A DNA stretch of 9,426 nucleotides. Origin: PVC group bacterium (GTDB lineage Bacteria; GCA-001730085; JADFSZ01). The translations under genes were made by a program, and so were the position numbers. The DNA lies in the NCBI GenBank assembly GCA_022560555.1, contig JADFSZ010000055.1, positions 1 through 9,426 on the forward strand, given 5' to 3'. Positions 1-9,426 of this stretch are shown piece after piece (positions within the stretch are counted from its first letter, which is position 1; each line of letters opens with the position of its first letter). A model generated the notes under the pieces. It saw only the letters and a program-made list of their open reading frames with translations. It searched no databases and was not told where the DNA came from.

Positions 1-90
1 ATTATGATTCTAACCATGGGTTCATTGGTCCTTTTTATTGTTGTCGCGATGATGCTCCCGATATTCCAAATGAACTCCATGCTTGGCTAG
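1..90 (+). CDS. gspF: Type II secretion / type IV pilus inner-membrane platform protein GspF/PilC, C-terminal fragment (5' end outside window)
   Basis: Frame 1 from base 1 reads IMILTMGSLVLFIVVAMMLPIFQMNSMLG, with stop TAG at 88-90. A final hydrophobic helix ending in A-M-x-LPIF-(Q/K)-(M/L)-x-S is the characteristic GspF/PilC C-terminus. It sits immediately upstream of gspG, as in canonical gsp operons. It is missing from the ORF track because it is open at the window edge. Confidence 0.8.
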   Translation: MMILTMGSLVLFIVVAMMLPIFQMNSMLG

Positions 91-97
91 TCATGGG

Positions 98-203
98 ACA
101 TGTGACATGAGCCAAAAAAATGATAGTTAAGAGTTCGGGATCATGTGACATGATTTAAGTATTTAAAAGACCCGTTTTTGACTTTTTACTCATGACTCAT
201 GAC
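98..203. promoter_or_regulatory. Array of CATG-centred palindromic repeats in the gspF-gspG spacer (candidate operator sites)
   Basis: The 12-mer CATGTGACATGA occurs exactly at 99-110 and 142-153. The second copy is a perfect 6-1-6 palindrome, TCATGT-G-ACATGA (141-153). The first is a 5-1-5 palindrome (99-109). A tandem TCATGAC x2 lies at 190-203, and each unit contains the self-complementary TCATGA. A further TCATG lies at 91-95. Confidence 0.35.
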
Positions 204-212
204 CAATATAAA
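185..212 (+). promoter_or_regulatory. Candidate sigma70-type promoter for the pseudopilin operon
   Basis: TTTACT (185-190), a 16-nt spacer, then TATAAA (207-212). A strong RBS AAGGAGG (234-240) sits 5 nt before the gspG ATG at 246. The tandem TCATGAC repeat occupies the spacer. This is by-eye consensus matching only. Confidence 0.3.
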
Positions 213-245
213 CTCATAAACGCAGAACATATTTAAGGAGGACAA

Positions 246-680
246 ATGTTGATTAAAACTAATAATGCATTTACTCTCATCGAGCTCATGCTTGTGATCA
301 TTATTATCGGGGTTTTGGGGACAATGGCCGTGAAAAATCTCAAAGGCCGGTCGGGTGAAGCCCGTATGGCTGTTGCCAGGGCGGATATAGAGACGAACAT
401 TGCCGGAGCCTTGGATCTGTATGAGCTTGATAATGGCCTGTATCCCACAACGGATCAGGGGCTCGCAGCGCTGATCAGAAAACCATCATCAGCGAAAAAT
501 TGGAATGGCCCCTATCTAAAGAAGAGAAGAATCCCGAAAGATCCATGGGGCAATCCGTATCAATTTCAAAACCCCGGGACAAACAATACGGACGATTATG
601 ATCTTTTCTCGATGGGAAAAGACGCTTCTCCCGGAACCGAAGATGATATTAGTAATTGGGATGATGAGGATGAGTTTTAG
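246..680 (+). CDS. gspG: Type II secretion system major pseudopilin GspG
   Basis: Class III (prepilin) signal MLIKTNNA|FTLIELMLVIIIIGVL with Glu at +5. GspG hallmark blocks are present: ALDLYELDNGLYPTTDQGLAAL, W-GPYL, PKDPWGNPYQFQNPG, YDLFSMGKD. AAGGAGG RBS upstream. Confidence 0.95.
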   Translation: MLIKTNNAFTLIELMLVIIIIGVLGTMAVKNLKGRSGEARMAVARADIETNIAGALDLYELDNGLYPTTDQGLAALIRKPSSAKNWNGPYLKKRRIPKDPWGNPYQFQNPGTNNTDDYDLFSMGKDASPGTEDDISNWDDEDEF

Positions 681-690
681 AAAGTGTTTT

Positions 691-1212
691 ATGGGGAGTT
701 CAAGCGGCCGTTTTAGGGAAAGTTTTAAAGTTTTTTTTAAAAAAGATTCAAAAAAAGCGTTTACCCTTATAGAGCTTCTTATTGTCGTGGTGATCGTGAG
801 CATTTTGGTTGTGATCACCGTACCCCGGTTTCGGGGAAGTTTTGAATTTATACGCTTTGAAAATAGTGTGAGGAATTTTACGAAACTTGTTCGTTACGGG
901 CAAGACCTTGCTGTGATTTACCGGAGACACTATCGATTGAAAGTGGAGGAGAGAGAAGGGGCGTTCTGGCTGGAGCACGAAGGAAAAACAAAGGGACGTT
1001 TTGAAAAGGTTTCGGGAAAATGGGGGAAAAAATATTTTATACCGAGTTTTGTTGACCTCAAAACCGATAAAAAAGAATACGTCTTTTATTTGGATGGCCG
1101 TTCCCAAACAGGAGAAGTTGAATTTGAATTTAGGGATCGGTATACGTATACGGTTAAACTTCTTGGTACGCGAGGACATGTTGAAATCATAGAGGAAACC
1201 AATCGACAGTGA
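691..1212 (+). CDS. gspH: Minor pseudopilin, GspH/FimT-like
   Basis: Prepilin motif KKA|FTLIELLIVVVIVSIL (Glu +5) followed by a beta-rich body. It holds the second pseudopilin position in G-H-I-J-K order. The tracked ORF starts at 598 inside gspG. ATG 691 is the first start after the gspG stop, and there is no in-frame ATG/GTG/TTG between 691 and the FTLIE motif. ATG 661/664/670 remain alternative starts. Confidence 0.7.
   Translation: MGSSSGRFRESFKVFFKKDSKKAFTLIELLIVVVIVSILVVITVPRFRGSFEFIRFENSVRNFTKLVRYGQDLAVIYRRHYRLKVEEREGAFWLEHEGKTKGRFEKVSGKWGKKYFIPSFVDLKTDKKEYVFYLDGRSQTGEVEFEFRDRYTYTVKLLGTRGHVEIIEETNRQ
731..756 (+). repeat. Homopolymer cluster T8 (731-738), A6 (739-744), A7 (750-756) inside the gspH leader-peptide coding region
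   Basis: Read directly from the sequence: gttttttttaaaaaagattcaaaaaaagcg. It encodes ...KVFFKKDSKKA immediately before the predicted prepilin cleavage site. Confidence 0.9.
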
Positions 1213-1610
1213 GTCCACCCCCCATAAAGGAAATAGAAAAAAAACAGGGCATGCTTCTTTTGGAAGTGATTGTCGCCATGGTTGTTTTATCTGTCGGTTT
1301 GACCATGATGATGCGGTCTTTTTCGATTTCCATTAAGGCGGCTCGCGTGGTTCAGAATTATTTTTACGCGGTTGTGCGCGTGGAAAATCTTGTTTGGGAT
1401 CTGGAAGAGAACTATGCGGGCCTGCAGGGTGAAGGTAAAAGAAGCGATATGTACGGTGAATATCAGACAGCGGTCGATTCGTTTGATCTTAGTCCTCAGG
1501 CCCTTAAAAAATCGACCGTTGAAGTCTATTGGCAAGAAGGAAAACGAAGAGAAGGCGTAAAATTCACTTCCTTGTTTTATGTCCCCCTACCCGGTGAGTC
1601 AGAGCGATGA
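1209..1610 (+). CDS. gspI: Minor pseudopilin, GspI-like
   Basis: The GTG start at 1209 overlaps the gspH stop (GTGA). Prepilin-type motif KKQG|MLLLEVIVAMVVLSVGL with Gly -1 and Glu +5. Small (~130 aa) body and third pseudopilin position. ATG 1251 is an alternative start but would remove the leader. Confidence 0.7.
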   Translation: MSPPPIKEIEKKQGMLLLEVIVAMVVLSVGLTMMMRSFSISIKAARVVQNYFYAVVRVENLVWDLEENYAGLQGEGKRSDMYGEYQTAVDSFDLSPQALKKSTVEVYWQEGKRREGVKFTSLFYVPLPGESER

Positions 1611-2260
1611 AAAATCAAAAGGCTTTTACCCTGATAGAACTTGTCGTTGCATTGACGATTTTTTCCGTATTGGGCATCGCGGTGTTTTCGACTCTTTCCA
1701 TGGGGCTAAGTTCCTGGCGTAGAGGAGAGAGCCAGGAAAAGGCTTATCAGGATATACGTATTTTTTTCGATGTTCTGGGAGAAGAAATGCGTAACGCCGT
1801 TGACCTTATTGATCAACCCTTTCAGGGAGAGGAACAAAAGATTAAATTTGCTTTTATCAAAAATGTTTACAATCCCGAAGATGCTTCTACAAATAAAGAG
1901 CTTGGTATTGTGGAGTATCTGTTGAAAAAGGAAAAATCAGCTTTGACTCTCTATCGGCAATATTGGGCGTATCCGGCTGATCCGAAGGCAAAGAACAGGG
2001 GCGGCAAAATTCTTTCAGGTATCAAGGAAATATCATTAAAATACTGGGGGTATGAATCAAACGAAGACGAAAGCCAAGAGCCTCCTGTTTACACATGGGC
2101 ATCATCTTGGGATTCATTGGGAGAATTACCGGGAGGCGTCAAAATCCATCTGGCCATGATGGCCGAAAAAGATTATGATCCAAAAATTTCGATTGAGAAG
2201 AAAATTAAAATATTCAGCGGCTCAGGAAAGATTGTCCGTTCTGAAGAGGCAGGAATCTAA
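1607..2260 (+). CDS. gspJ: Minor pseudopilin, GspJ/PulJ-like
   Basis: The ATG overlaps the gspI stop (ATGA). Motif MKNQKA|FTLIELVVALTIFSVLG with Glu +5. About 217 aa, with N-terminal helix continuation LSMGLSSWRRGE...AYQDIRIFFDVLGEEMRNA, typical of PulJ-family proteins. Fourth pseudopilin position. Confidence 0.8.
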   Translation: MKNQKAFTLIELVVALTIFSVLGIAVFSTLSMGLSSWRRGESQEKAYQDIRIFFDVLGEEMRNAVDLIDQPFQGEEQKIKFAFIKNVYNPEDASTNKELGIVEYLLKKEKSALTLYRQYWAYPADPKAKNRGGKILSGIKEISLKYWGYESNEDESQEPPVYTWASSWDSLGELPGGVKIHLAMMAEKDYDPKISIEKKIKIFSGSGKIVRSEEAGI

Positions 2261-2261
2261 A

Positions 2262-3401
2262 TTGTACACAAAGAACGGGGCGATTCTTATCCTCACCCTA
2301 TGGGTCATGATGATTATCACGGTTCTCGCGGTTGGCTTAGCGTTTAGAATGAGAATTGAGATTCGGATGACGCAAATTTTCATTGCCAAAACCGAAATTG
2401 TGGAAATCGCAAAATCCGCCCTCTATCGAGCGTTAGGTGAATCGATAAATGATCTCGAGCCTGTCGGCGAAGAGGAGGCTCAAGGCGGCGACGTTTTTTC
2501 CTACAATCTTTCTTGGGCCGTAAACACTGACTTGTATAAGGACATTGAGTTGGGGCGAGGCCGATTTGATATCCGATTTGAATACGAGCTATCCGAAGAT
2601 GAGAATCAAAAGGAAATATTTTACGGACTCAAAGATGAACAATCATTGATTAACTTAAATTTTGTGGCTTCGATGAAGGATAAAAGGAAAGCCAAGAGGA
2701 TCATTAAATCTATACTTGGCCCTGATGTGGATCAAGATGAAAAAACGCTTGTTGCCGGAGCCATTATTGATTGGGTCGACAAATCCGAAGAAGACGGAGG
2801 TTTATCTGAAGTTAGTATCGGGGGAGCCGAAGACAGCTTTTATGCCTCTTTGAGCCCGGCCTATCAAGCGAGAGATGGTTTGTTAAAGACCGTTGAGGAA
2901 TTAAAATTTGTCAGGGGTGTTACGGATGAGATTTATGAGCGCTTGAAGAAATATGTGACGGTTTACGGAAAGGGAAGCACAAATATTAATACGGCGCCGA
3001 GAGAGGTGCTTTTGGCTTTGGGGAATTTGGGGGAGAGTTTTGTTGATGCCATGTTGGATTGGCGTTTAGGTGAAGATGGCCGTATGGGGACCGATGATGA
3101 CGGCATTTTTACGAGCCTTCAGGATATAGAAGTGAATTTAGGGTATCCCTCCGGAAGTATCGCGGCTCTTGATGAGCTTCGGCAAACGAAGACCGTTTCA
3201 AAAGAAGCCGAAGATCAAGGCTTGGAAGCGGCTCAACTCATCGGTGTGACCTCCGATGTGTTTCGAGTACATATTTTTGCCTCTTTGGAAAACAGCCCGG
3301 TAACAAAGGAGCTTGATGTGGTGTTTCAAAGAGAGCGTCCCGAGCCTGGTGAAGAAAACAGTATTGAAAAGTACCGGATCCTTTATTGGTTTGAGAAATG
3401 A
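2262..3401 (+). CDS. gspK: Minor pseudopilin GspK-like (tip-complex cap)
   Basis: Hydrophobic N-terminus KNGAILILTLWVMMIITVLAVGLA without Glu +5, as in GspK. GspK hallmark blocks are present: GLKDEQSLINLN, IIDWVD...GAED.FY, LKTVEELKFVRGVT.EIYERLKKYVTVYG and helix-hairpin-helix-like NINTAPREVLLAL. The tracked ORF starts at 2175 inside gspJ. I prefer TTG 2262, 2 nt after the gspJ stop with GAGG/AGGAA upstream. The start is uncertain. Confidence 0.8.
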   Translation: MYTKNGAILILTLWVMMIITVLAVGLAFRMRIEIRMTQIFIAKTEIVEIAKSALYRALGESINDLEPVGEEEAQGGDVFSYNLSWAVNTDLYKDIELGRGRFDIRFEYELSEDENQKEIFYGLKDEQSLINLNFVASMKDKRKAKRIIKSILGPDVDQDEKTLVAGAIIDWVDKSEEDGGLSEVSIGGAEDSFYASLSPAYQARDGLLKTVEELKFVRGVTDEIYERLKKYVTVYGKGSTNINTAPREVLLALGNLGESFVDAMLDWRLGEDGRMGTDDDGIFTSLQDIEVNLGYPSGSIAALDELRQTKTVSKEAEDQGLEAAQLIGVTSDVFRVHIFASLENSPVTKELDVVFQRERPEPGEENSIEKYRILYWFEK

Positions 3402-3429
3402 GTTGCTTAGAGAAACGAAAAGAACATGT

Positions 3430-3642
3430 ATGAAAACATATGATATCGTATTGAAATCTTTTAACCTGAAGCGTGTCGATATTGCGCGTCAGTGTCTATC
3501 GGGCTTGTTCAAATTAACTGACGAACAGGCTCAGAACATATTAAATCAGGCTCCCGTCATTGTGCTTGAGCGTGTTTTGAAAAAAGAAGCTCACGTTGTC
3601 TCTAAAGAATTGAAGAACGGTGGAATTATAGTAAAAAGATAT
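3430..3642 (+). other. N-terminal ~71-aa accessory domain of the PilMN protein, resembling the ribosomal L7/L12 C-terminal domain
   Basis: By-eye alignment of YDIVLKSFNLKRVDIARQCLSGLFKLTDEQAQNILNQAPVIVLERVLKKEAHVVSKELKNGGIIVKRY to the E. coli L7/L12 CTD recalled from memory ([67 protein letters not shown]). The (F/Y)D(V/I)(I/V)LK strand, the GL..L..EA helix, the AP turn and the terminal G..V strand are shared. A basic/Pro-rich linker follows (3643-3792). Confidence 0.5.
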
Positions 3643-5250
3643 CCCGCCGGGCAGATGGGCAAAAAAGTTTCACGTATCGTATGGCCAAGCCCCCCCTCCA
3701 TACATGTACCCGGCACTCCCAAGGTTCGTAAAATCAAAACAACGATTTTGCGTGTCGTACGAAAAACCCAGCCCCAAGGACCTAAAGGAACGTTGTTAGG
3801 AATAGAATTCAATGCCGGGATTCTAAAAATGATAAAGTTTTCCGAGGAAAGAGATGGTTTGAAAACTGATCGTGTCGTTGTCTCTCAATTAAATGAATTG
3901 TCGGATGAAGAGATTGTCAGTCAGATCAAAACAATCATCTATCAATATAAAATGCAGTCAGAGCATATTATCGGCGTTCTTCCCCGCGAATATACTACGG
4001 CTCGCATGCTCGATTTTCCGTCCGCGGATGATACGGAAATTGAAAATATGGTCCGGTTCCAAGCCGTCAAAATGGTTCCTTTTTCAAAGGAGGAAATGAT
4101 TGTTGATTTTCAGGTTTTAGGGGCCTCTCAAGAAGGATTTTCCCGTGTGATGGTTTTTATCGTCAAGCGGGATATTATTGAGAGGTATCTTGGCATTTTC
4201 GCGAAATCAAATCTTTTCCCCACGCGGCTGACGATTAATACATCTGAAATGTGCGCCGCTCTCGGCGATTATTTTAAGGAGATCCGCCTGAATGAAACCT
4301 CCTCAACCATGGTCATTGATTTGGACTATCGAAATTCCAACATTCTTGTGTTTGATCATCAGTGGCCCCTGATCACGCGTTCCGTTGATATTGGGCTTGT
4401 GGATTTGGATGACCAAACCTTGCCCCGTACTCAGATCGAGAACGCGTGTCAGCAGCTTGCGGTTGAAATCCGGACAACGATAACGGCTGTCCGTAAGGAT
4501 TTGAAAGGACAAAAACTTGACCAAATTGTCGTTGTGACCGGTTCTGAGAGTATCTTTACCTGCCTCAAGACGTATGTACAGTCCTTTGGGGAAAATCTCA
4601 AAAGGATCGATTCGTCCCTGCTCTTAAAAAGAAAGATCACGGCTCATAAAAAGGATGTTTCCGAATTTGTATCTTTCCTGGGATGCATGGGCTTGCTCGT
4701 CCGGAGTAAAAAGCGTCCGTTGAATCTGATGCCGAAGGAACTCTTGGAAAAGAGAAAGCACATACTATTTCGGCAAAATATCCAACGTCTCGCCTTTTTA
4801 TCAGGGGTCCTTTTGGTATCCCTGGGGCTGGTATTTTCGGGGCATCTGGGACGTTACAAAAAGTATATTCGAGCGTTGGAGGCCAAAATCGAATCGTTCG
4901 GTCCTCAAGCCCGTAAAATAGAAGTTATGAAAAAAAGGCTTTCCATCTTAAATGATCAATTTGCTCCCGAAAAATCTGTTTTGAATGTTTTAAAAGAGCT
5001 TTATCGTCTCATTCCTGATGACGTTTTTATCAATCAATTCGAATTTGAAGATAGCCGCGTTGTGTCGATTCGGGGGTCCGCCAAAAACCGTGTTGATGTA
5101 TATGCCATGGTAAAAACCATGGACGAATCAGGGTTGTTTGAAAGTATTGAGCTGAGAGGCGGAATTAGCACTCGGAAAATTCGTCAAGAAGTACTATATG
5201 ATTTTAACGTATACGGAAAAATAAAAACGAGCATGAAAGAAGCGAATTAA
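3430..5250 (+). CDS. PilM-PilN fusion protein (GspL-equivalent assembly-platform component) with an extra N-terminal domain
   Basis: PilM-type blocks: LLGIEFNAGILKMIKF, ENMVRFQAVKMVPFSKEEMIVDFQVLG, VFIVKRDIIERY, IVVVTGSES. Then a PilN-type N-terminal motif RPLNLMPKE (from 4714), a TM helix LAFLSGVLLVSLGLVFSGHLG (4789-4851), a coiled-coil segment and a PilN-like ferredoxin-type domain (VFINQFEFEDSRVVSIRGSAKNRVDVYAMVKTMDESGLFESIEL). It occupies the gspL slot between gspK and a gspM/pilO-like gene. ATG 3430 is the first ATG after the gspK stop. TTG 3403 is an alternative start. Confidence 0.85.
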   Translation: MKTYDIVLKSFNLKRVDIARQCLSGLFKLTDEQAQNILNQAPVIVLERVLKKEAHVVSKELKNGGIIVKRYPAGQMGKKVSRIVWPSPPSIHVPGTPKVRKIKTTILRVVRKTQPQGPKGTLLGIEFNAGILKMIKFSEERDGLKTDRVVVSQLNELSDEEIVSQIKTIIYQYKMQSEHIIGVLPREYTTARMLDFPSADDTEIENMVRFQAVKMVPFSKEEMIVDFQVLGASQEGFSRVMVFIVKRDIIERYLGIFAKSNLFPTRLTINTSEMCAALGDYFKEIRLNETSSTMVIDLDYRNSNILVFDHQWPLITRSVDIGLVDLDDQTLPRTQIENACQQLAVEIRTTITAVRKDLKGQKLDQIVVVTGSESIFTCLKTYVQSFGENLKRIDSSLLLKRKITAHKKDVSEFVSFLGCMGLLVRSKKRPLNLMPKELLEKRKHILFRQNIQRLAFLSGVLLVSLGLVFSGHLGRYKKYIRALEAKIESFGPQARKIEVMKKRLSILNDQFAPEKSVLNVLKELYRLIPDDVFINQFEFEDSRVVSIRGSAKNRVDVYAMVKTMDESGLFESIELRGGISTRKIRQEVLYDFNVYGKIKTSMKEAN

Positions 5251-5251
5251 G

Positions 5252-5791
5252 ATGTTGTCTGTTCAGTTATCAAAAAGGGAAAAAAATATATTCATGCTTT
5301 GTGTTATCGTTATACTGGGCGCTCTTTTTTATACGTATATGGTTCAGCCCGTCGTGCGGTATGCGGGCAGTATCTTTGGACAGATAGACGAACTTGAAAC
5401 TTCCTTGGCTCACGACCGCAGGATTCTTGCTCTCGCTTCGACGATCGAAGCCAACTATCAAGAAATCATCGGACGGGTTAAAATGACTGATTCTGATGAT
5501 ATCAATGTGATGTTTACGGATATCGATCGTATCGCGGCCATTCATCAAATTGATATGACGGATATTAAGCCGCTCGATACAAAAGAAATGGAATTTTATA
5601 TCGAAAACAAAATTAATATTGAAGGGTTTGCCGCGGTTGAGAATCTTGTCAGGTTTATTTATGAAATTGAATCAGTCGCGAATCTCATGAAAGTGTATAA
5701 ACTGAGACTGACAGCCCGGAATCGAGCGGGCACAAAAGGGGTGGGGTTTAGTATGATTATTAATCGGGTGCGGATACCCACTCATGAGTAA
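5252..5791 (+). CDS. PilO/GspM-like assembly-platform protein
   Basis: Short cytoplasmic N-terminus, one TM helix (IFMLCVIVILGALFYTYMV), then a coiled-coil stretch (IDELETSLAHDRRILA). The C-terminal alpha/beta domain has a PilO-like pattern: INIEGFAAVENLVRFIYEIESVANLMKVYKLRL. It starts 1 nt after the PilMN stop. Confidence 0.7.
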   Translation: MLSVQLSKREKNIFMLCVIVILGALFYTYMVQPVVRYAGSIFGQIDELETSLAHDRRILALASTIEANYQEIIGRVKMTDSDDINVMFTDIDRIAAIHQIDMTDIKPLDTKEMEFYIENKINIEGFAAVENLVRFIYEIESVANLMKVYKLRLTARNRAGTKGVGFSMIINRVRIPTHE

Positions 5792-6557
5792 TCGGCGCTC
5801 TCGAGACATCCTAGCCGTTGACATCGGAAACACAACGATTTCTTTCGGTGTGGTTCGTAGGGGGCGACTGTTGTTTACGAGCCGTATGGAGACCGGCAAG
5901 AAAGCTCAGTCTCAGGACCGGATTGTGCATAAAGCCTGCAAAAAATATCACATCGATAAAATTGTTGTGAGCAGTGTTGTTCCTGAAAAAAACACGTGGA
6001 TGAAACGCGTGTCGCGAAAATATTTTTCCAAAACACCGCATTTTTTGGATGCCTTGGCTGTGAAAAAAATGGGAATTCGGATTGCCTACCGGCCTGTGTC
6101 TTCTGTCGGTGCTGACCGGCTGGCGCTGGCTCTTGCTTGTTTTTCCATGAAACTTCCGCTGGTGATTATCGATTTTGGGACGGCCCTCACTTTTGATGTT
6201 CTCAGTGATAAGAAAGAATACCTGGGGGGCATTATTTTTCCGGGCCCCGCGTTAGCCTTCAGGACGCTCGGTGAGAAGGCGAGCTTATTGAAAGGGATAG
6301 CCCCCTTGCGTGATCCAAAAAAAATACTTGGTTCATCCACACCGGAAAGCTTAGGGAGCGGAAAACAATACGGGTATTTATCTTTAGTCGAAGGAGTCAT
6401 CAGGCGACTCGAAAAACATCTTCGGCATCCTTGTACCGTAGTGTTCACGGGGGTCGATTCTAAATACGTGTATCAAGCGTACAAACATCCGCGTAAACAT
6501 TACAATCAGTTTCTTGTGCTCAAAGGATTGAGCCTTTGGGCACAAAATCTCACGTAG
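5784..6557 (+). CDS. coaX: Type III pantothenate kinase (CoaX)
   Basis: Motifs LAVDIGNTTISFGV (phosphate-1), VGADRLA and VIIDFGTALTFDV are the conserved CoaX/ASKHA signatures. About 257 aa, typical length. The ATG at 5784 overlaps the preceding gene's stop (5789-5791) by 8 nt. Confidence 0.9.
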   Translation: MSNRRSRDILAVDIGNTTISFGVVRRGRLLFTSRMETGKKAQSQDRIVHKACKKYHIDKIVVSSVVPEKNTWMKRVSRKYFSKTPHFLDALAVKKMGIRIAYRPVSSVGADRLALALACFSMKLPLVIIDFGTALTFDVLSDKKEYLGGIIFPGPALAFRTLGEKASLLKGIAPLRDPKKILGSSTPESLGSGKQYGYLSLVEGVIRRLEKHLRHPCTVVFTGVDSKYVYQAYKHPRKHYNQFLVLKGLSLWAQNLT

Positions 6558-6580
6558 AAACGATGGGATCGGAAGTGATA

Positions 6581-7684
6581 TTATTTGACCCCGGCCATGT
6601 CCGGAACAGGCAGGGGAACGTCTTTTTTGTGGGGAAGGTGCGGCATTTTTTCTGAATCAGGAGGGATGATGTTCGGCCCCAAAATCGTGCCTTTGATCGT
6701 TGCGAAAAATCCTTTGAGAGATCCGAACGTATAATCGACCGCCGTTGGTTCGTGACCGCAGTGGACCATGCAGTTGACACATTTTGGATTCCCGCTCGCT
6801 TGTCCGTATTTGTGCCACTCGGTTTTTTCCATGAGATCCTTAAACGTCGGAACATATCCTTCTTGCAGAAGATAGCAGGGCAATTGCCAGCCGAAAATAT
6901 TGTATGTTGGATTTCCCCATGGGGTACATTCAAAATGGCGTGATCCCGCAATGAATTCCAAAAAGAGAGGGGAATGATTAAACTTCCAGCTCTTTTTAGG
7001 TCGATAAAGCAACTCTCTAAAGAATTTATAGGATTGGTTTCTTTTAAGGAAGTGCTCTTGATCCGGAGCTTTGTCATAGCTGTAACCGGGAGACAGCATC
7101 ATGCTCTCAACGCCTAGAGCCATCATGTCATCCAAAAACCCGCGAAAATGTTCGCCGTCATGCCCGTCAAAAATGGTTGTATTGGTGGTGACGCGAAATC
7201 CGCGCTCAACGGTTTTTTTGATGGCCTGTACGGCTCTTTTATATGTCCCGTTTAAGCACACGGATATATCGTGCTCTTTCTCAGGTCCATCCATATGAAT
7301 GGAAAAACTCAAATATTTAGAAGGTGTGTATTGATCCATCTTCTTTTCAAGCAGAAGAGCGTTTGTGCATAGATATATGTATTTCTTTCGCTTGATGAGT
7401 GCTTCGACAATTTGAGGCATTTGAGGATGAAGTAAAGGCTCTCCTCCCGGAATGCTCACAATGGGAGCGCCGCATTCTTCGTCGGCTTGCATGCACTGCT
7501 CAAAACTTAACTGCTTCTTAAGAATATCTGCAGGATATTGGATTTTTCCGCAGCCCTTACAGGCAAGGTTGCACCGAAAGAGGGGCTCTAACATTAAAAC
7601 CAGCGGATATCGTTTACGTCTTTTGAGATGCTGCTTGATGACGTACGATGTGACAGTCCACATTTGTGAAATTGGAACACTCAT
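6581..7684 (-). CDS. hpnH: Radical SAM enzyme of the HpnH (adenosyl-hopene transferase, DUF3463-containing) family
   Basis: Radical SAM cluster motif CNLACKGCGK within YPLVLMLEPLFRCNLACKGCGKIQYP, then SIPGGEPLLHPQ, LCTNALLL and RVTTNTT. The C-terminal block APDQEHFL...NHSPLFLEFIAGSRHFECTPWGNPTYNIFGWQLPCYLL...KCVNCMVHCGHEPTAV matches HpnH sequences as I recall them, nearly colinearly. AGGAA RBS 8 nt upstream. Confidence 0.8.
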   Translation of the reverse strand: MSVPISQMWTVTSYVIKQHLKRRKRYPLVLMLEPLFRCNLACKGCGKIQYPADILKKQLSFEQCMQADEECGAPIVSIPGGEPLLHPQMPQIVEALIKRKKYIYLCTNALLLEKKMDQYTPSKYLSFSIHMDGPEKEHDISVCLNGTYKRAVQAIKKTVERGFRVTTNTTIFDGHDGEHFRGFLDDMMALGVESMMLSPGYSYDKAPDQEHFLKRNQSYKFFRELLYRPKKSWKFNHSPLFLEFIAGSRHFECTPWGNPTYNIFGWQLPCYLLQEGYVPTFKDLMEKTEWHKYGQASGNPKCVNCMVHCGHEPTAVDYTFGSLKGFFATIKGTILGPNIIPPDSEKMPHLPHKKDVPLPVPDMAGVK

Positions 7685-7697
7685 AACTTGATTTCCT

Positions 7698-9005
7698 TTA
7701 TAGACATAATCGACCCTCTAATCCCTCCGGGGCCGCTTGTGAGAGTTTAACGTTATATATCTGATTTTTTAAATGCTTGTCTGATTTTACAAAAACACGT
7801 ATGAAATTGCAAGTATAACCTAACCAAAATTCATGATCCTTTTCTTCAAATAAAACAGGTTTGATTTGGCCGATAAACGAAGCATTGTAGTGGCGGCGTT
7901 TATGTTCACTTAGGTGTCTGAGTTTGGCAGAGCGGGCTTTTTTGATAGCCTCAGACACGTGCCCTTTGAGGCCGCATGCACGCGTTCCGTCTCGCATTGA
8001 ATAGCTGAATACATGAGCATAAGCCAAGGGGCTTTTTTTGAAAAAGCAGCATGTGTCTTCAAAATCTTCCTCAGTCTCACCGGGGAATCCCACCATAATA
8101 TCTGTTCCAATGCAAATATCCTTAACCCGGGATTGTGCCATAGAGATAAATTCCTCAAATTCTTCTCGAGTGTATTTGCGTGACATGGCCTTAAGGGTCT
8201 TGTTTGAGCCGGATTGGAGAGGGATGTGTAGATAAGGCAGCAAGGCATGCGTATCGTCATTCATGGCTTTGAAAAGGCCGGGAGGAATCGTTGTGGGCTC
8301 TATGGAGCTGAGGCGTATTCTCTGAATGCCCGGGACTTCATTGAGCTTGTGGATGAGGGGCTCGATAGTGCTGTTTTCGCTTTGATATGTTCCAAGATTA
8401 ACTCCCGTAAGGATGATCTCCCGGGTTCCTTGTTGAGCGAGGGTGACGGCTTCATCAAGAATATTGGATAATTTACGACTTCGGGCACGTCCTCTCGCAA
8501 AAGGGATAATGCAAAAAGTGCACATAAAATCACACCCATCCTGAATTTTGAGATTTACGCGTGTGTTTAGCTTGGCCTGGCCGATGGGATCAATCGTAAA
8601 ATCTTCCCGAAGAAACTTATCCCTGATAATGACGGGTTCCTTGTTTTTCCCCAGATTGACGTAATGAAGCACATTGAGTTTTTCCTGATTGCCGATAATA
8701 AGGTCCACACCGGGAATGTTGGCAATAGCTCTATATCCCATTTGAGAGTAGCAGCCGACAACAGCCAGATAGGCGCCGGGGTTTTTCTTAATGAAAAAGC
8801 GAATGGCCCGCCGGGATTTTGCGTCAGCCATTGCTGTTACTGTGCATGTATTAATAATCGCCAAATCGGCTTTGTCCCCGAACGGAACGAGCTTGTATCC
8901 TGAATGCTCCAGTTGACGTGCCATAAGAGCCGTTTCGGATTGGTTGAGCCGACAGCCAAGGGTATGAACGGAGGCTTGTTTTGTTTGACTTTGTGTCTGA
9001 AGCAT
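7698..9005 (-). CDS. mtaB: tRNA (t6A37) methylthiotransferase MtaB (MiaB-like radical SAM)
   Basis: UPF0004 N-domain HTLGCRLNQSETALMA...INTCTVT...VVGCY. Radical SAM motif QDGCDFMCTFCIIPFARG. Further blocks LTGVNLG, IRLSSIEP, HLHIPLQSGS, MVGFPGETEEDF and a C-terminal TRAM-like region. Colinear with Bacillus YqeV/MtaB as recalled. Confidence 0.9.
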   Translation of the reverse strand: MLQTQSQTKQASVHTLGCRLNQSETALMARQLEHSGYKLVPFGDKADLAIINTCTVTAMADAKSRRAIRFFIKKNPGAYLAVVGCYSQMGYRAIANIPGVDLIIGNQEKLNVLHYVNLGKNKEPVIIRDKFLREDFTIDPIGQAKLNTRVNLKIQDGCDFMCTFCIIPFARGRARSRKLSNILDEAVTLAQQGTREIILTGVNLGTYQSENSTIEPLIHKLNEVPGIQRIRLSSIEPTTIPPGLFKAMNDDTHALLPYLHIPLQSGSNKTLKAMSRKYTREEFEEFISMAQSRVKDICIGTDIMVGFPGETEEDFEDTCCFFKKSPLAYAHVFSYSMRDGTRACGLKGHVSEAIKKARSAKLRHLSEHKRRHYNASFIGQIKPVLFEEKDHEFWLGYTCNFIRVFVKSDKHLKNQIYNVKLSQAAPEGLEGRLCL

Positions 9006-9053
9006 CCTTTACTCTCATTAAAAGTTAATAAACGTGGACTTATTCTAACTATA

Positions 9054-9082
9054 ATACTATGATCTTTCTATTTAAATCTCAA
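9054..9082 (-). promoter_or_regulatory. Candidate sigma70-type promoter for mtaB-hpnH
   Basis: On the minus strand: TTGAGA (9082-9077), a 17-nt spacer, then TAGTAT (9059-9054), about 50 nt upstream of the mtaB ATG. It lies in an AT-rich 202-bp divergent intergenic region. By-eye match only. Confidence 0.25.
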
Positions 9083-9207
9083 GTACCTTAAACAGCTGCG
9101 TCAAGAAGTGTCTGATTTTAAAACAAGAATTAAGATATAGATAACATTAAAGTTAAGAAGAATTTTATTGTCCTTATTTCGTCCGCGTGTACATAAGAGA
9201 AATTTTC

Positions 9208-9426
9208 ATGACACGGTTAAAAAAGCGAAAGTTTTATGATTCCGCATATGTTCCGCACGAAAATCGAAAGGCCACTATTTTAGCCTGTATTATGCTGTGG
9301 TCTTTGATATTTTGCTTTGTCATCACAAAATTTATTCTTGGAACCGTTGACATTGTCGGGCACAGCATGCTTCCAACGCTCAAAGACCAAGAGCGGTATG
9401 TGATAAATCGGATCGCGTACAATTTT
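9208..9426 (+). CDS. lepB: Signal peptidase I (LepB), N-terminal fragment running off the window
   Basis: Translation from ATG 9208: MTRLKKRKFYDSAYVPHENRKATILACIMLWSLIFCFVITKFILGTVDIVGHSMLPTLKDQERYVINRIAYNF. It has a basic N-terminus, a TM anchor and the SPase I box B motif G-x-SM-x-PTL containing the catalytic Ser. There is no stop before the window end, so it is absent from the ORF track. GTG 9187 is an alternative start. Confidence 0.8.
   Translation, partial: MTRLKKRKFYDSAYVPHENRKATILACIMLWSLIFCFVITKFILGTVDIVGHSMLPTLKDQERYVINRIAYNF

Follow-up and report, generated by a model that had tools for sequence, protein, structure and literature searches.

The window analysed here is a 9,426-nucleotide stretch of DNA from a PVC group bacterium (GenBank assembly GCA_022560555.1, contig JADFSZ010000055.1, positions 1 to 9,426). 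It contains a type II secretion system (T2SS) or type IV filament operon on the + strand. One gene of this operon encodes a 606-residue PilM-PilN fusion protein that very probably begins with a diverged relative of the C-terminal domain (CTD) found in the ribosomal stalk protein bL12 (L7/L12). The open reading frame (ORF) consists of the L12-CTD-like domain, a basic tether, a PilM actin-like core, an INLLP-like motif, a transmembrane (TM) helix and a periplasmic PilN domain (Table 1). PilM-PilN platform subunits of T2SS and type IV pili (T4P) are a known type; the lineage-specific L12-like accessory domain is new. Overall, we favour with moderate confidence a platform subunit that has gained a bL12-CTD-like module, most likely with a docking role.

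Several searches point to bL12. The original prediction held that about 71 extra residues resemble the L7/L12 CTD along their whole length, and this is what Pfam, the PDB, a local hidden Markov model (HMM) and hhalign find as well. For residues 1-72 alone (MKTYDIVLKSF...GGIIVKRYP) the best Pfam family is Ribosomal_L12 (PF00542), with E=2.5e-4 and 21.8 bits over profile positions 1-62 of 67. A phmmer search of the PDB yields 12 matches, all of them bL12, with the whole CTD aligned and a best E of 0.014.

A local HMM made from 15 non-redundant bL12 CTDs, with the query left out, gives the domain 28.2 bits, compared to 9.5 bits for the best of 5000 composition-preserving shuffles and 0.6 for the reversed sequence. 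Hence composition does not explain the match. The comparison by hhalign with 27 bL12 sequences gives a probability of 84% (P=7.7e-6) over 65 aligned columns with 32% identity, and MAFFT independently finds the same register with a single one-residue indel. The domain limits coincide with the N-terminus of the protein and with the start of the low-complexity tether.

Is the likeness to bL12 convergent or coincidental, and are residues 1-72 an unrelated small alpha/beta or helical domain? Some results weigh in that direction. The Pfam score lies under the gathering score of 25.9, even though PF00542 comes out on top. When the full-length protein is the query, the E value for PF00542 is only 0.031. 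Identity to bL12 is only 25-34%, and a single-sequence AlphaFold2 (AF2) model of residues 1-121 is poor (pLDDT 44) and contains helices only. Yet the per-model significance is about 1e-8 to 1e-10, every PDB sequence match is bL12, the alignment is global and collinear, and the shuffle and reversal controls score far lower. We thus give a coincidence very little credence. Judged by these alignments, residues 1-72 are very probably a real, full-length relative of the bL12 CTD, and it is highly probable that they form a real L12-fold domain.

An AF2 model with a forced alignment to 44 bL12 proteins reaches a pLDDT of 93, with the elements E3-11, H13-27, H31-39, E43-50, H51-63 and E66-71. Foldseek matches this model to the bL12 structure 1ctf with TM scores of 0.86/0.91 and an rmsd of 1.2 Å. 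Both the model and the match are circular, which counts against using them as support. Because the input alignment was filled with bL12, the model indicates only that the sequence is compatible with the beta-alpha-alpha-beta-alpha-beta L12 fold; it is no independent discovery of that fold. The structural check attached to the original prediction is hence divided between a poor single-sequence model and a good but circular one.

The Clp protease adaptor ClpS is of a similar fold class to the model. Its structures match the model clearly less well than 1ctf does (TM about 0.65-0.75), and ClpS (PF02617) gives no sequence signal in residues 1-72; its only match is a chance one at residues 503-531 (E=0.15). 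We also dismissed matches to Peptidase_M9_N and SGTA_dimer (Pfam) and to CheY and ClpS (NCBIfam) as chance, with E of at least 0.05 and partial coverage or the wrong region. PHROGs has no match for residues 1-121.

Although the domain resembles bL12 from end to end, conserved positions indicate that it is not a functional bL12: the scaffold appears to be kept and the functional surface rewritten. We compared the 44 positions that are at least 90% conserved among 44 bL12 sequences. The domain is identical at 14 of them, and their spread is very uneven. Outside the helix 4-5 segment (residues 13-40), that is in the strands, helix 6 and the turns, 12 of 27 conserved positions are kept. Within the segment it is 2 of 17. 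The structural residues that are kept are T3, D5, L8, L29, A34, A41-P42, E47, V49, K51, A54, L61, G65 and V68. The helix 4-5 signature of bL12 (V/I-K-x-V-R...TGLGLKEAK) has turned into R.DIARQCLSGLFKLTDEQAQ. The net charge of the domain is +6, compared to a median of -1 (range -3 to +1) for bL12 CTDs.

Other features of bL12 are missing as well. The N-terminal dimerisation and uL10-binding domain (PF16320) has no match here, and the domain begins at residue 3. The bL12 model TIGR00855, whose cut-off is 84.4, gives only 12.8-14.8 bits. The genomic context is a T2SS operon and not rplJ-rplL.

The helix 4-5 surface of bL12 binds EF-Tu, EF-G, IF2 and RF3. The residue-level detail of this factor-binding face is reportedly found in Helgstrand et al. 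2007 and Diaconu et al. 2005. Since the helix 4-5 face is replaced and the charge inverted, the domain is unlikely to recruit translational GTPases of the EF-Tu/EF-G type. The bL12 CTD is the common binding site of these GTPases (PMC10931766), and the original prediction drew on this analogy; taken literally, the analogy is not supported. With its rewritten face and basic charge, the domain points to a new partner that is probably acidic.

The remainder of the protein is, by its profile matches, a bitopic PilM-PilN fusion and a cytoplasmic-membrane assembly-platform subunit of a T2SS or type IV filament machine, because it has PilM_2 and PilN matches with a motif and one hydrophobic helix between them. 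In Pfam, PilM_2 (PF11104) covers residues 124-317 (E=2.2e-10, 40.4 bits, cut-off 27) and PilN (PF05137) covers residues 520-594 (E=6.7e-10, 39.3 bits, cut-off 22.8). We place the protein in a divergent PilM subfamily, since the NCBIfam model for pilM, TIGR01175, matches (E=1.3e-16) with a score of 60.6 bits, under its cut-off of 133. The LNLMP motif at residue 431 presumably corresponds to the conserved INLLP motif at the N-terminus of PilN, which binds PilM. The PilN part is 62-64% identical to a protein fragment (P0004) and 96% identical to a strain-level contig (L003).

PulL/GspL is regarded as PilM fused to PilN (PMC10191384). The gene sits in the GspL slot, between gspK and a gspM-like gene of a gsp operon. 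The GspL families T2SSL (PF05134) and GspL_C (PF12693) have no match in the protein in Pfam at E up to 10, and some relatives give weak, sub-threshold T2SSL matches. The protein is thus GspL-equivalent by operon position and architecture only. Of the PilM/GspL-type platform that was originally proposed, the PilM and PilN parts and the GspL slot stand, and a match to a GspL family does not.

Between the domain and the PilM core lies the tether. It contains 22% Lys and Arg, 14% Pro and no Asp or Glu, and has a net charge of +11, which brings the N-terminal 121 residues to +17. A Lys/Arg/Pro-rich linker of about 50 residues that joins the module to the core was part of the original prediction; its sequence (PAGQMGKK...QPQGPKG) matches residues 72-120 exactly, ahead of the PilM_2 match. 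The single-sequence AF2 model leaves the stretch largely unstructured: residues 58-95 stay under a pLDDT of 50, and residues 97-113 form a helix of low confidence. The tether is probably flexible, and the model makes an amphipathic basic helix around residues 97-113 possible.

The last 10-20 or so residues of the tether align with the basic N-tails of some homologues, with alignments that start at query residues 101-119. Relatives with an N-terminal overhang of at least 15 residues carry unstructured, strongly basic tails ahead of the PilM core (23% Lys and Arg, 7% Asp and Glu). Because some tails align there, the final stretch of the tether seems to be something the family has in common, and the novelty lies in the L12-like domain together with the Pro-rich segment.

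To place the protein among its relatives we used an exhaustive HMMER search of 1.84 billion representatives, which returned 4357 relatives; the best 150 were examined. The best relatives are typically about 480 residues long and about 25-30% identical over residues ~120-600. They share PilM_2, a TM helix and PilN. In contrast to the protein described here, they start no more than about 7 residues from the core or carry short, unstructured basic tails: the overhang before the core has a median of 7 residues and a maximum of 75. It is hence right, as had been stated, that PilM and GspL normally begin with the actin-like fold.

No representative among the best 150 matches residues 1-116, and the L12 HMM finds nothing real in any of them. 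The ten relatives with the longest overhangs have no Pfam domain in the overhang. One homologue (P0094) matched the L12 HMM with two fragments of 4-5 bits around an internal GLGL motif, and we rejected this match.

Related loci give the same picture. In three syntenic loci (L006, L007 and L008) pilMN comes straight after gspK; the two genes either overlap or lie about 6 nt apart. The slot after gspK and before pilO/gspM is thus shared with other T2SS-like operons, and the extension is absent from these three loci as it is from the 150 closest relatives. A six-frame scan with the L12 HMM finds the domain in the window and in a sister contig (L002), and in none of the related loci.

Further searches add no second case. 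A word-indexed search with the full protein returned one distant PilM, and with residues 1-121 only a near-identical fragment (P0152). Exact look-ups of the 606-residue product and of a 619-residue product starting at TTG 3391 found no record. A scan of a genome collection gave one irrelevant PilN-like match from Tepidibacter. A metagenome scan gave a C-terminal fragment at 96% and a relative at 25% identity, with no intermediate relatives for testing conservation of the fusion. A profile search with the N-domain and bL12 returned only ordinary bL12 proteins and no other fusions. Within the PilM-PilN relatives and related loci examined, the L12-like domain thus appears to be a rare lineage-specific gain.

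The original prediction held that such an architecture is not known to be described for type IV filament systems, and full-text literature searches yielded no account of an L12-like domain in T4P or T2SS proteins. A precedent for the L12 CTD in an accessory role has been noted in one case, an orthocaspase from a cyanobacterium (PMC8283722). There, too, it is attached to an unrelated multidomain protein, with other partner domains and in a different cellular context.

The GC content of the domain is 0.38 and its GC3 is 0.40. These values are not distinctive enough to argue for a recent foreign origin, an idea we therefore dropped.

The frame is open from ATG 3430 to the stop codon without interruption, and the span 3430-3792 corresponds to residues 1-121 of the product. 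The stop codon of gspK at 3401 makes 3430 the natural next, operon-coupled start. A gene call on the sister contig uses TTG 3391 instead, which would add 13 residues. We prefer ATG 3430; the codon score of 3391-3429 is negative. We trained codon usage on the other genes of the window and compared all six frames. Frame +0 is favoured over the other five in the domain (0.15 bits per codon), in the tether (0.23) and more strongly in the core (0.37).

Alternatively, the functional protein may start near residue 122, at TTG 3793, so that the 363 nt ahead of it would go untranslated, be a remnant in decay or be made only in a minor long isoform. In nearly all homologues the N-terminus lies no more than about 10 residues ahead of the core. 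Moreover, Shine-Dalgarno (SD)-like motifs, AAGGA and AAAGGA, lie 11 and 3 nt upstream of 3793, compared to a weak purine-rich stretch ahead of ATG 3430, and mismatches between strains are denser in the N-domain. However, a decaying stretch would lose an end-to-end domain match of 28 bits and an in-phase frame of 121 codons, and the codon usage just described runs through both domain and tether. Most genes of the window also lack a strong SD, there is no promoter-like site ahead of 3793 on the + strand, and the end of gspK again favours 3430. More generally, the target region contains no relevant tRNA, Rfam family or internal promoter signal. In principle, TTG 3793 might yield an isoform of canonical length. 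As the start of the functional protein it is improbable, and ATG 3430 remains our choice.

Three strain-level contigs cover parts of the window: L002 (1-3649, 98.6% identical), L005 (4044-9052, 97.5%) and L003 (4828-6526, 96.9%). They bring some of the points that weigh against our reading. The domain is present in only two assemblies that are about 98.6% identical, so they give no view of long-term conservation. The junction between domain and core, 3650-4043, is covered by the assembly of the window alone. L002 carries 7 differences inside the domain; 4 are synonymous and 3 change the residue (R20C, G25V and P42H). This ratio speaks for a coding, in-frame stretch, and G25V and P42H weigh against our reading. 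Mismatches to L002 are about 3.5 times denser in the domain (3430-3612, 7 in 183) than upstream (1-3429, 38 in 3429; binomial p=0.005), and L002 reads TAG at 3613. The raised density could reflect relaxed constraint or errors towards the contig end.

The TAG lies in a peculiar tail. Of the 70 nt of L002 from 3613 to 3682, 19 are mismatched, and 15 of these mismatches are to T, whereas elsewhere it differs at about 1% of sites, mostly by transitions. Because this mismatch spectrum is unlike that in the other parts of L002, we take the tail for an error-ridden contig end, apparently an assembly or read-end artefact. Still, it gives the sole second view of the end of the L12-like domain.

This tail bears on another reading of the locus, in which the fusion is an assembly artefact and the L12-like ORF is a separate small gene that ends near 3613 and was mis-joined to pilMN. 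The TAG, the end of L002 at 3682, the start of L005 at 4044 and the single assembly in between all fit such a mis-join. But the TAG belongs to the 70 nt that look like an error tail, and a chimeric join would need to keep the frame and avoid stops by chance. In addition, gspK followed by pilMN is conserved synteny, and homologues have basic N-tails that align with the last part of the tether. An artefact is hence very improbable. We are fairly confident that the domain is truly fused to the platform protein and translated.

What could such a domain do? In bL12, factors are brought to the ribosome by a small domain that is present in several copies and hangs on flexible hinges (PMC10931766). 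PilM is the cytoplasmic socket or stator where PilB/GspE docks (PMC11656802). We propose that a diverged bL12-CTD fold was gained at the extreme cytoplasmic N-terminus of the platform subunit, on a basic, Pro-rich tether of about 49 residues. Because PilM-type subunits form a multi-copy ring, one tethered module per subunit would yield multi-copy arms around the ATPase socket, similar to the L12 stalk. Most likely, the domain would then serve as a repurposed module that captures or docks some cytoplasmic partner, but not a translation factor. The partner could be the N-terminal (MshEN/N1) region of the cognate ATPase or a regulator; another candidate is an anionic surface, for instance the membrane. 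Docking would raise the local concentration of the partner at the platform.

The comparison with bL12 that underlies this proposal has limits. By prediction, the domain has the same layout of about 68 residues as the bL12 CTD (PF00542; PDB 1CTF), aligned end to end, and like the bL12 CTD it would sit on a flexible linker from a multi-copy scaffold. In contrast to bL12, the domain is N-terminal instead of C-terminal here, and its tether is basic and Pro-rich, whereas the bL12 hinge is Ala/Gly-rich. By analogy, a docking arm for a protein partner is possible as the specific function, and we put it forward tentatively. A bolder version, also by analogy, is a "fishing" array of L12 folds that would capture an NTPase (GspE/PilB, or a regulatory or translational-type GTPase) and deliver it to the platform; in its boldest form it would couple translation to the secretion or pilus machine. 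We regard this version as rather improbable.

The fused domain may also be real without being a docking arm. The basic 121 residues could bind the anionic surface of the inner membrane or a different polyanion (nucleic acid, polyphosphate), or fold back as an autoinhibitory plug on the PilM core. The charges of the domain (+6) and of a tether devoid of acidic residues (+11) suit this explanation, and the basic tails of relatives suggest that what the family shares is the basic character and not the fold. On the other hand, a protein that is already anchored by a TM helix needs no membrane-binding tail for its localisation, and a folded domain of 70 residues exceeds the needs of a charge patch. 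We consider this explanation unlikely and continue to favour a gained module that most likely docks.

Table 1. Features annotated in the window, with the evidence for each.
Feature	Positions	Strand	Evidence
GspF/PilC-like gene, last 29 codons	1-90	+	read directly
Pseudopilin genes gspG, H, I, J, one operon	246-2260	+	T2SSG, N_methyl motifs, T2SSJ E=7.8e-7
gspG	246-680	+	T2SSG E=5.2e-36
Three more prepilin-type genes, gspJ among them	598/670-2260	+	
gspK, directly upstream of the target ORF	2175 or 2232 to 3401	+	T2SSK_1st, Pfam E=5.2e-17
Alternative start TTG 3391, +13 residues	3391-3429	+	gene call on sister contig L002 (P0152)
Target ORF, 606 residues and stop	3430-5250 (stop 5248-5250)	+	ORF list
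bL12-CTD-like domain, residues 1-72 (HMM-aligned core ~3436-3630)	3430-3645	+	PF00542, PDB matches, local HMM, hhalign
Tether, residues 73-121	3646-3792	+	composition, charge
PilM-type actin-like cytoplasmic core, residues 122-430	3793-4719	+	Pfam/NCBIfam; homologue alignments from residue ~117-125
LNLMP motif, residues 431-435	4720-4734	+	position in sequence
Single predicted TM helix, residues ~451-472	4780-4845	+	Kyte-Doolittle 19-residue maximum 1.94 at residue 451
Periplasmic PilN domain, residues 520-594	4987-5211	+	PF05137
pilO/gspM-like gene, directly downstream of the target ORF	5252-5791	+	PilO E=5.1e-5, T2SSM E=8.3e-5
coaX, overlaps pilO by 8 nt	5784-6557	+	
Radical_SAM + DUF3463 gene	6581-7684	-	
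UPF0004 + Radical_SAM methylthiotransferase, MiaB/MtaB-like	7698-9005	-	

Profile scans give the gene order gspF-G-H-I-J-K-[pilMN]-pilO for the operon. The same gsp order occurs in two relatives (L006 and L008), together with gspE (MshEN+T2SSE), gspF and in one case a secretin. The ends of the window exclude gspE; neither gspE nor a secretin gene lies within it. In the closest related operon (L006, 1-1630) the motor ATPase has an MshEN-type N-terminal domain (PF05157) ahead of T2SSE.

Downstream of pilO the loci differ. In the window, coaX follows pilO directly and there is no secretin, whereas L008 has, after pilO, an AAA_22 ATPase, which we take to be GspA/ExeA-like, then a 217-residue ORF and a secretin (6042-9473). 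An AAA_22 gene also lies downstream of pilO in L006 (8565-9380, after a MerR-family gene) and in L009 (2472-3344), and in these two no secretin is called up to the contig end. The two radical-SAM genes of the window run convergent to the secretion operon, and the Radical_SAM + DUF3463 gene presumably resembles the hopanoid-pathway enzyme HpnH. Nucleotides 9006-9426 contain no ORF longer than 62 residues, no tRNA and no Rfam match.

Two starts in the operon are ambiguous: 598 or 670 for the gspH-like gene (598-1212), and 2175 or 2232 for gspK. In their longer forms, both genes overlap the one ahead of them by 83-86 nt. On L002 the gene caller picked 670 and 2232, and gspH is cut there at 1035 through strain differences at 1035-1036.

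The intergenic region between gspF and gspG contains an exact 12-nt direct repeat, CATGTGACATGA, at 99-110 and 142-153, 43 nt apart. Near it lies the element CTCATGACTCATGAC (about 189-204), and all of these lie upstream of gspG's strong ribosome-binding site, AAGGAGG. A regulator of the pseudopilin operon may use these elements as its operator.

The finding matters for how motor ATPases and their regulators reach the PilM/GspL socket and are exchanged there. A natural variant with a recruitment fold on a flexible arm would provide a testable handle on this process. The fusion appears confined so far to one uncultured lineage, which leaves its general importance uncertain. If true, it would be a clear case of a ribosomal stalk domain that is reused in a non-ribosomal machine.

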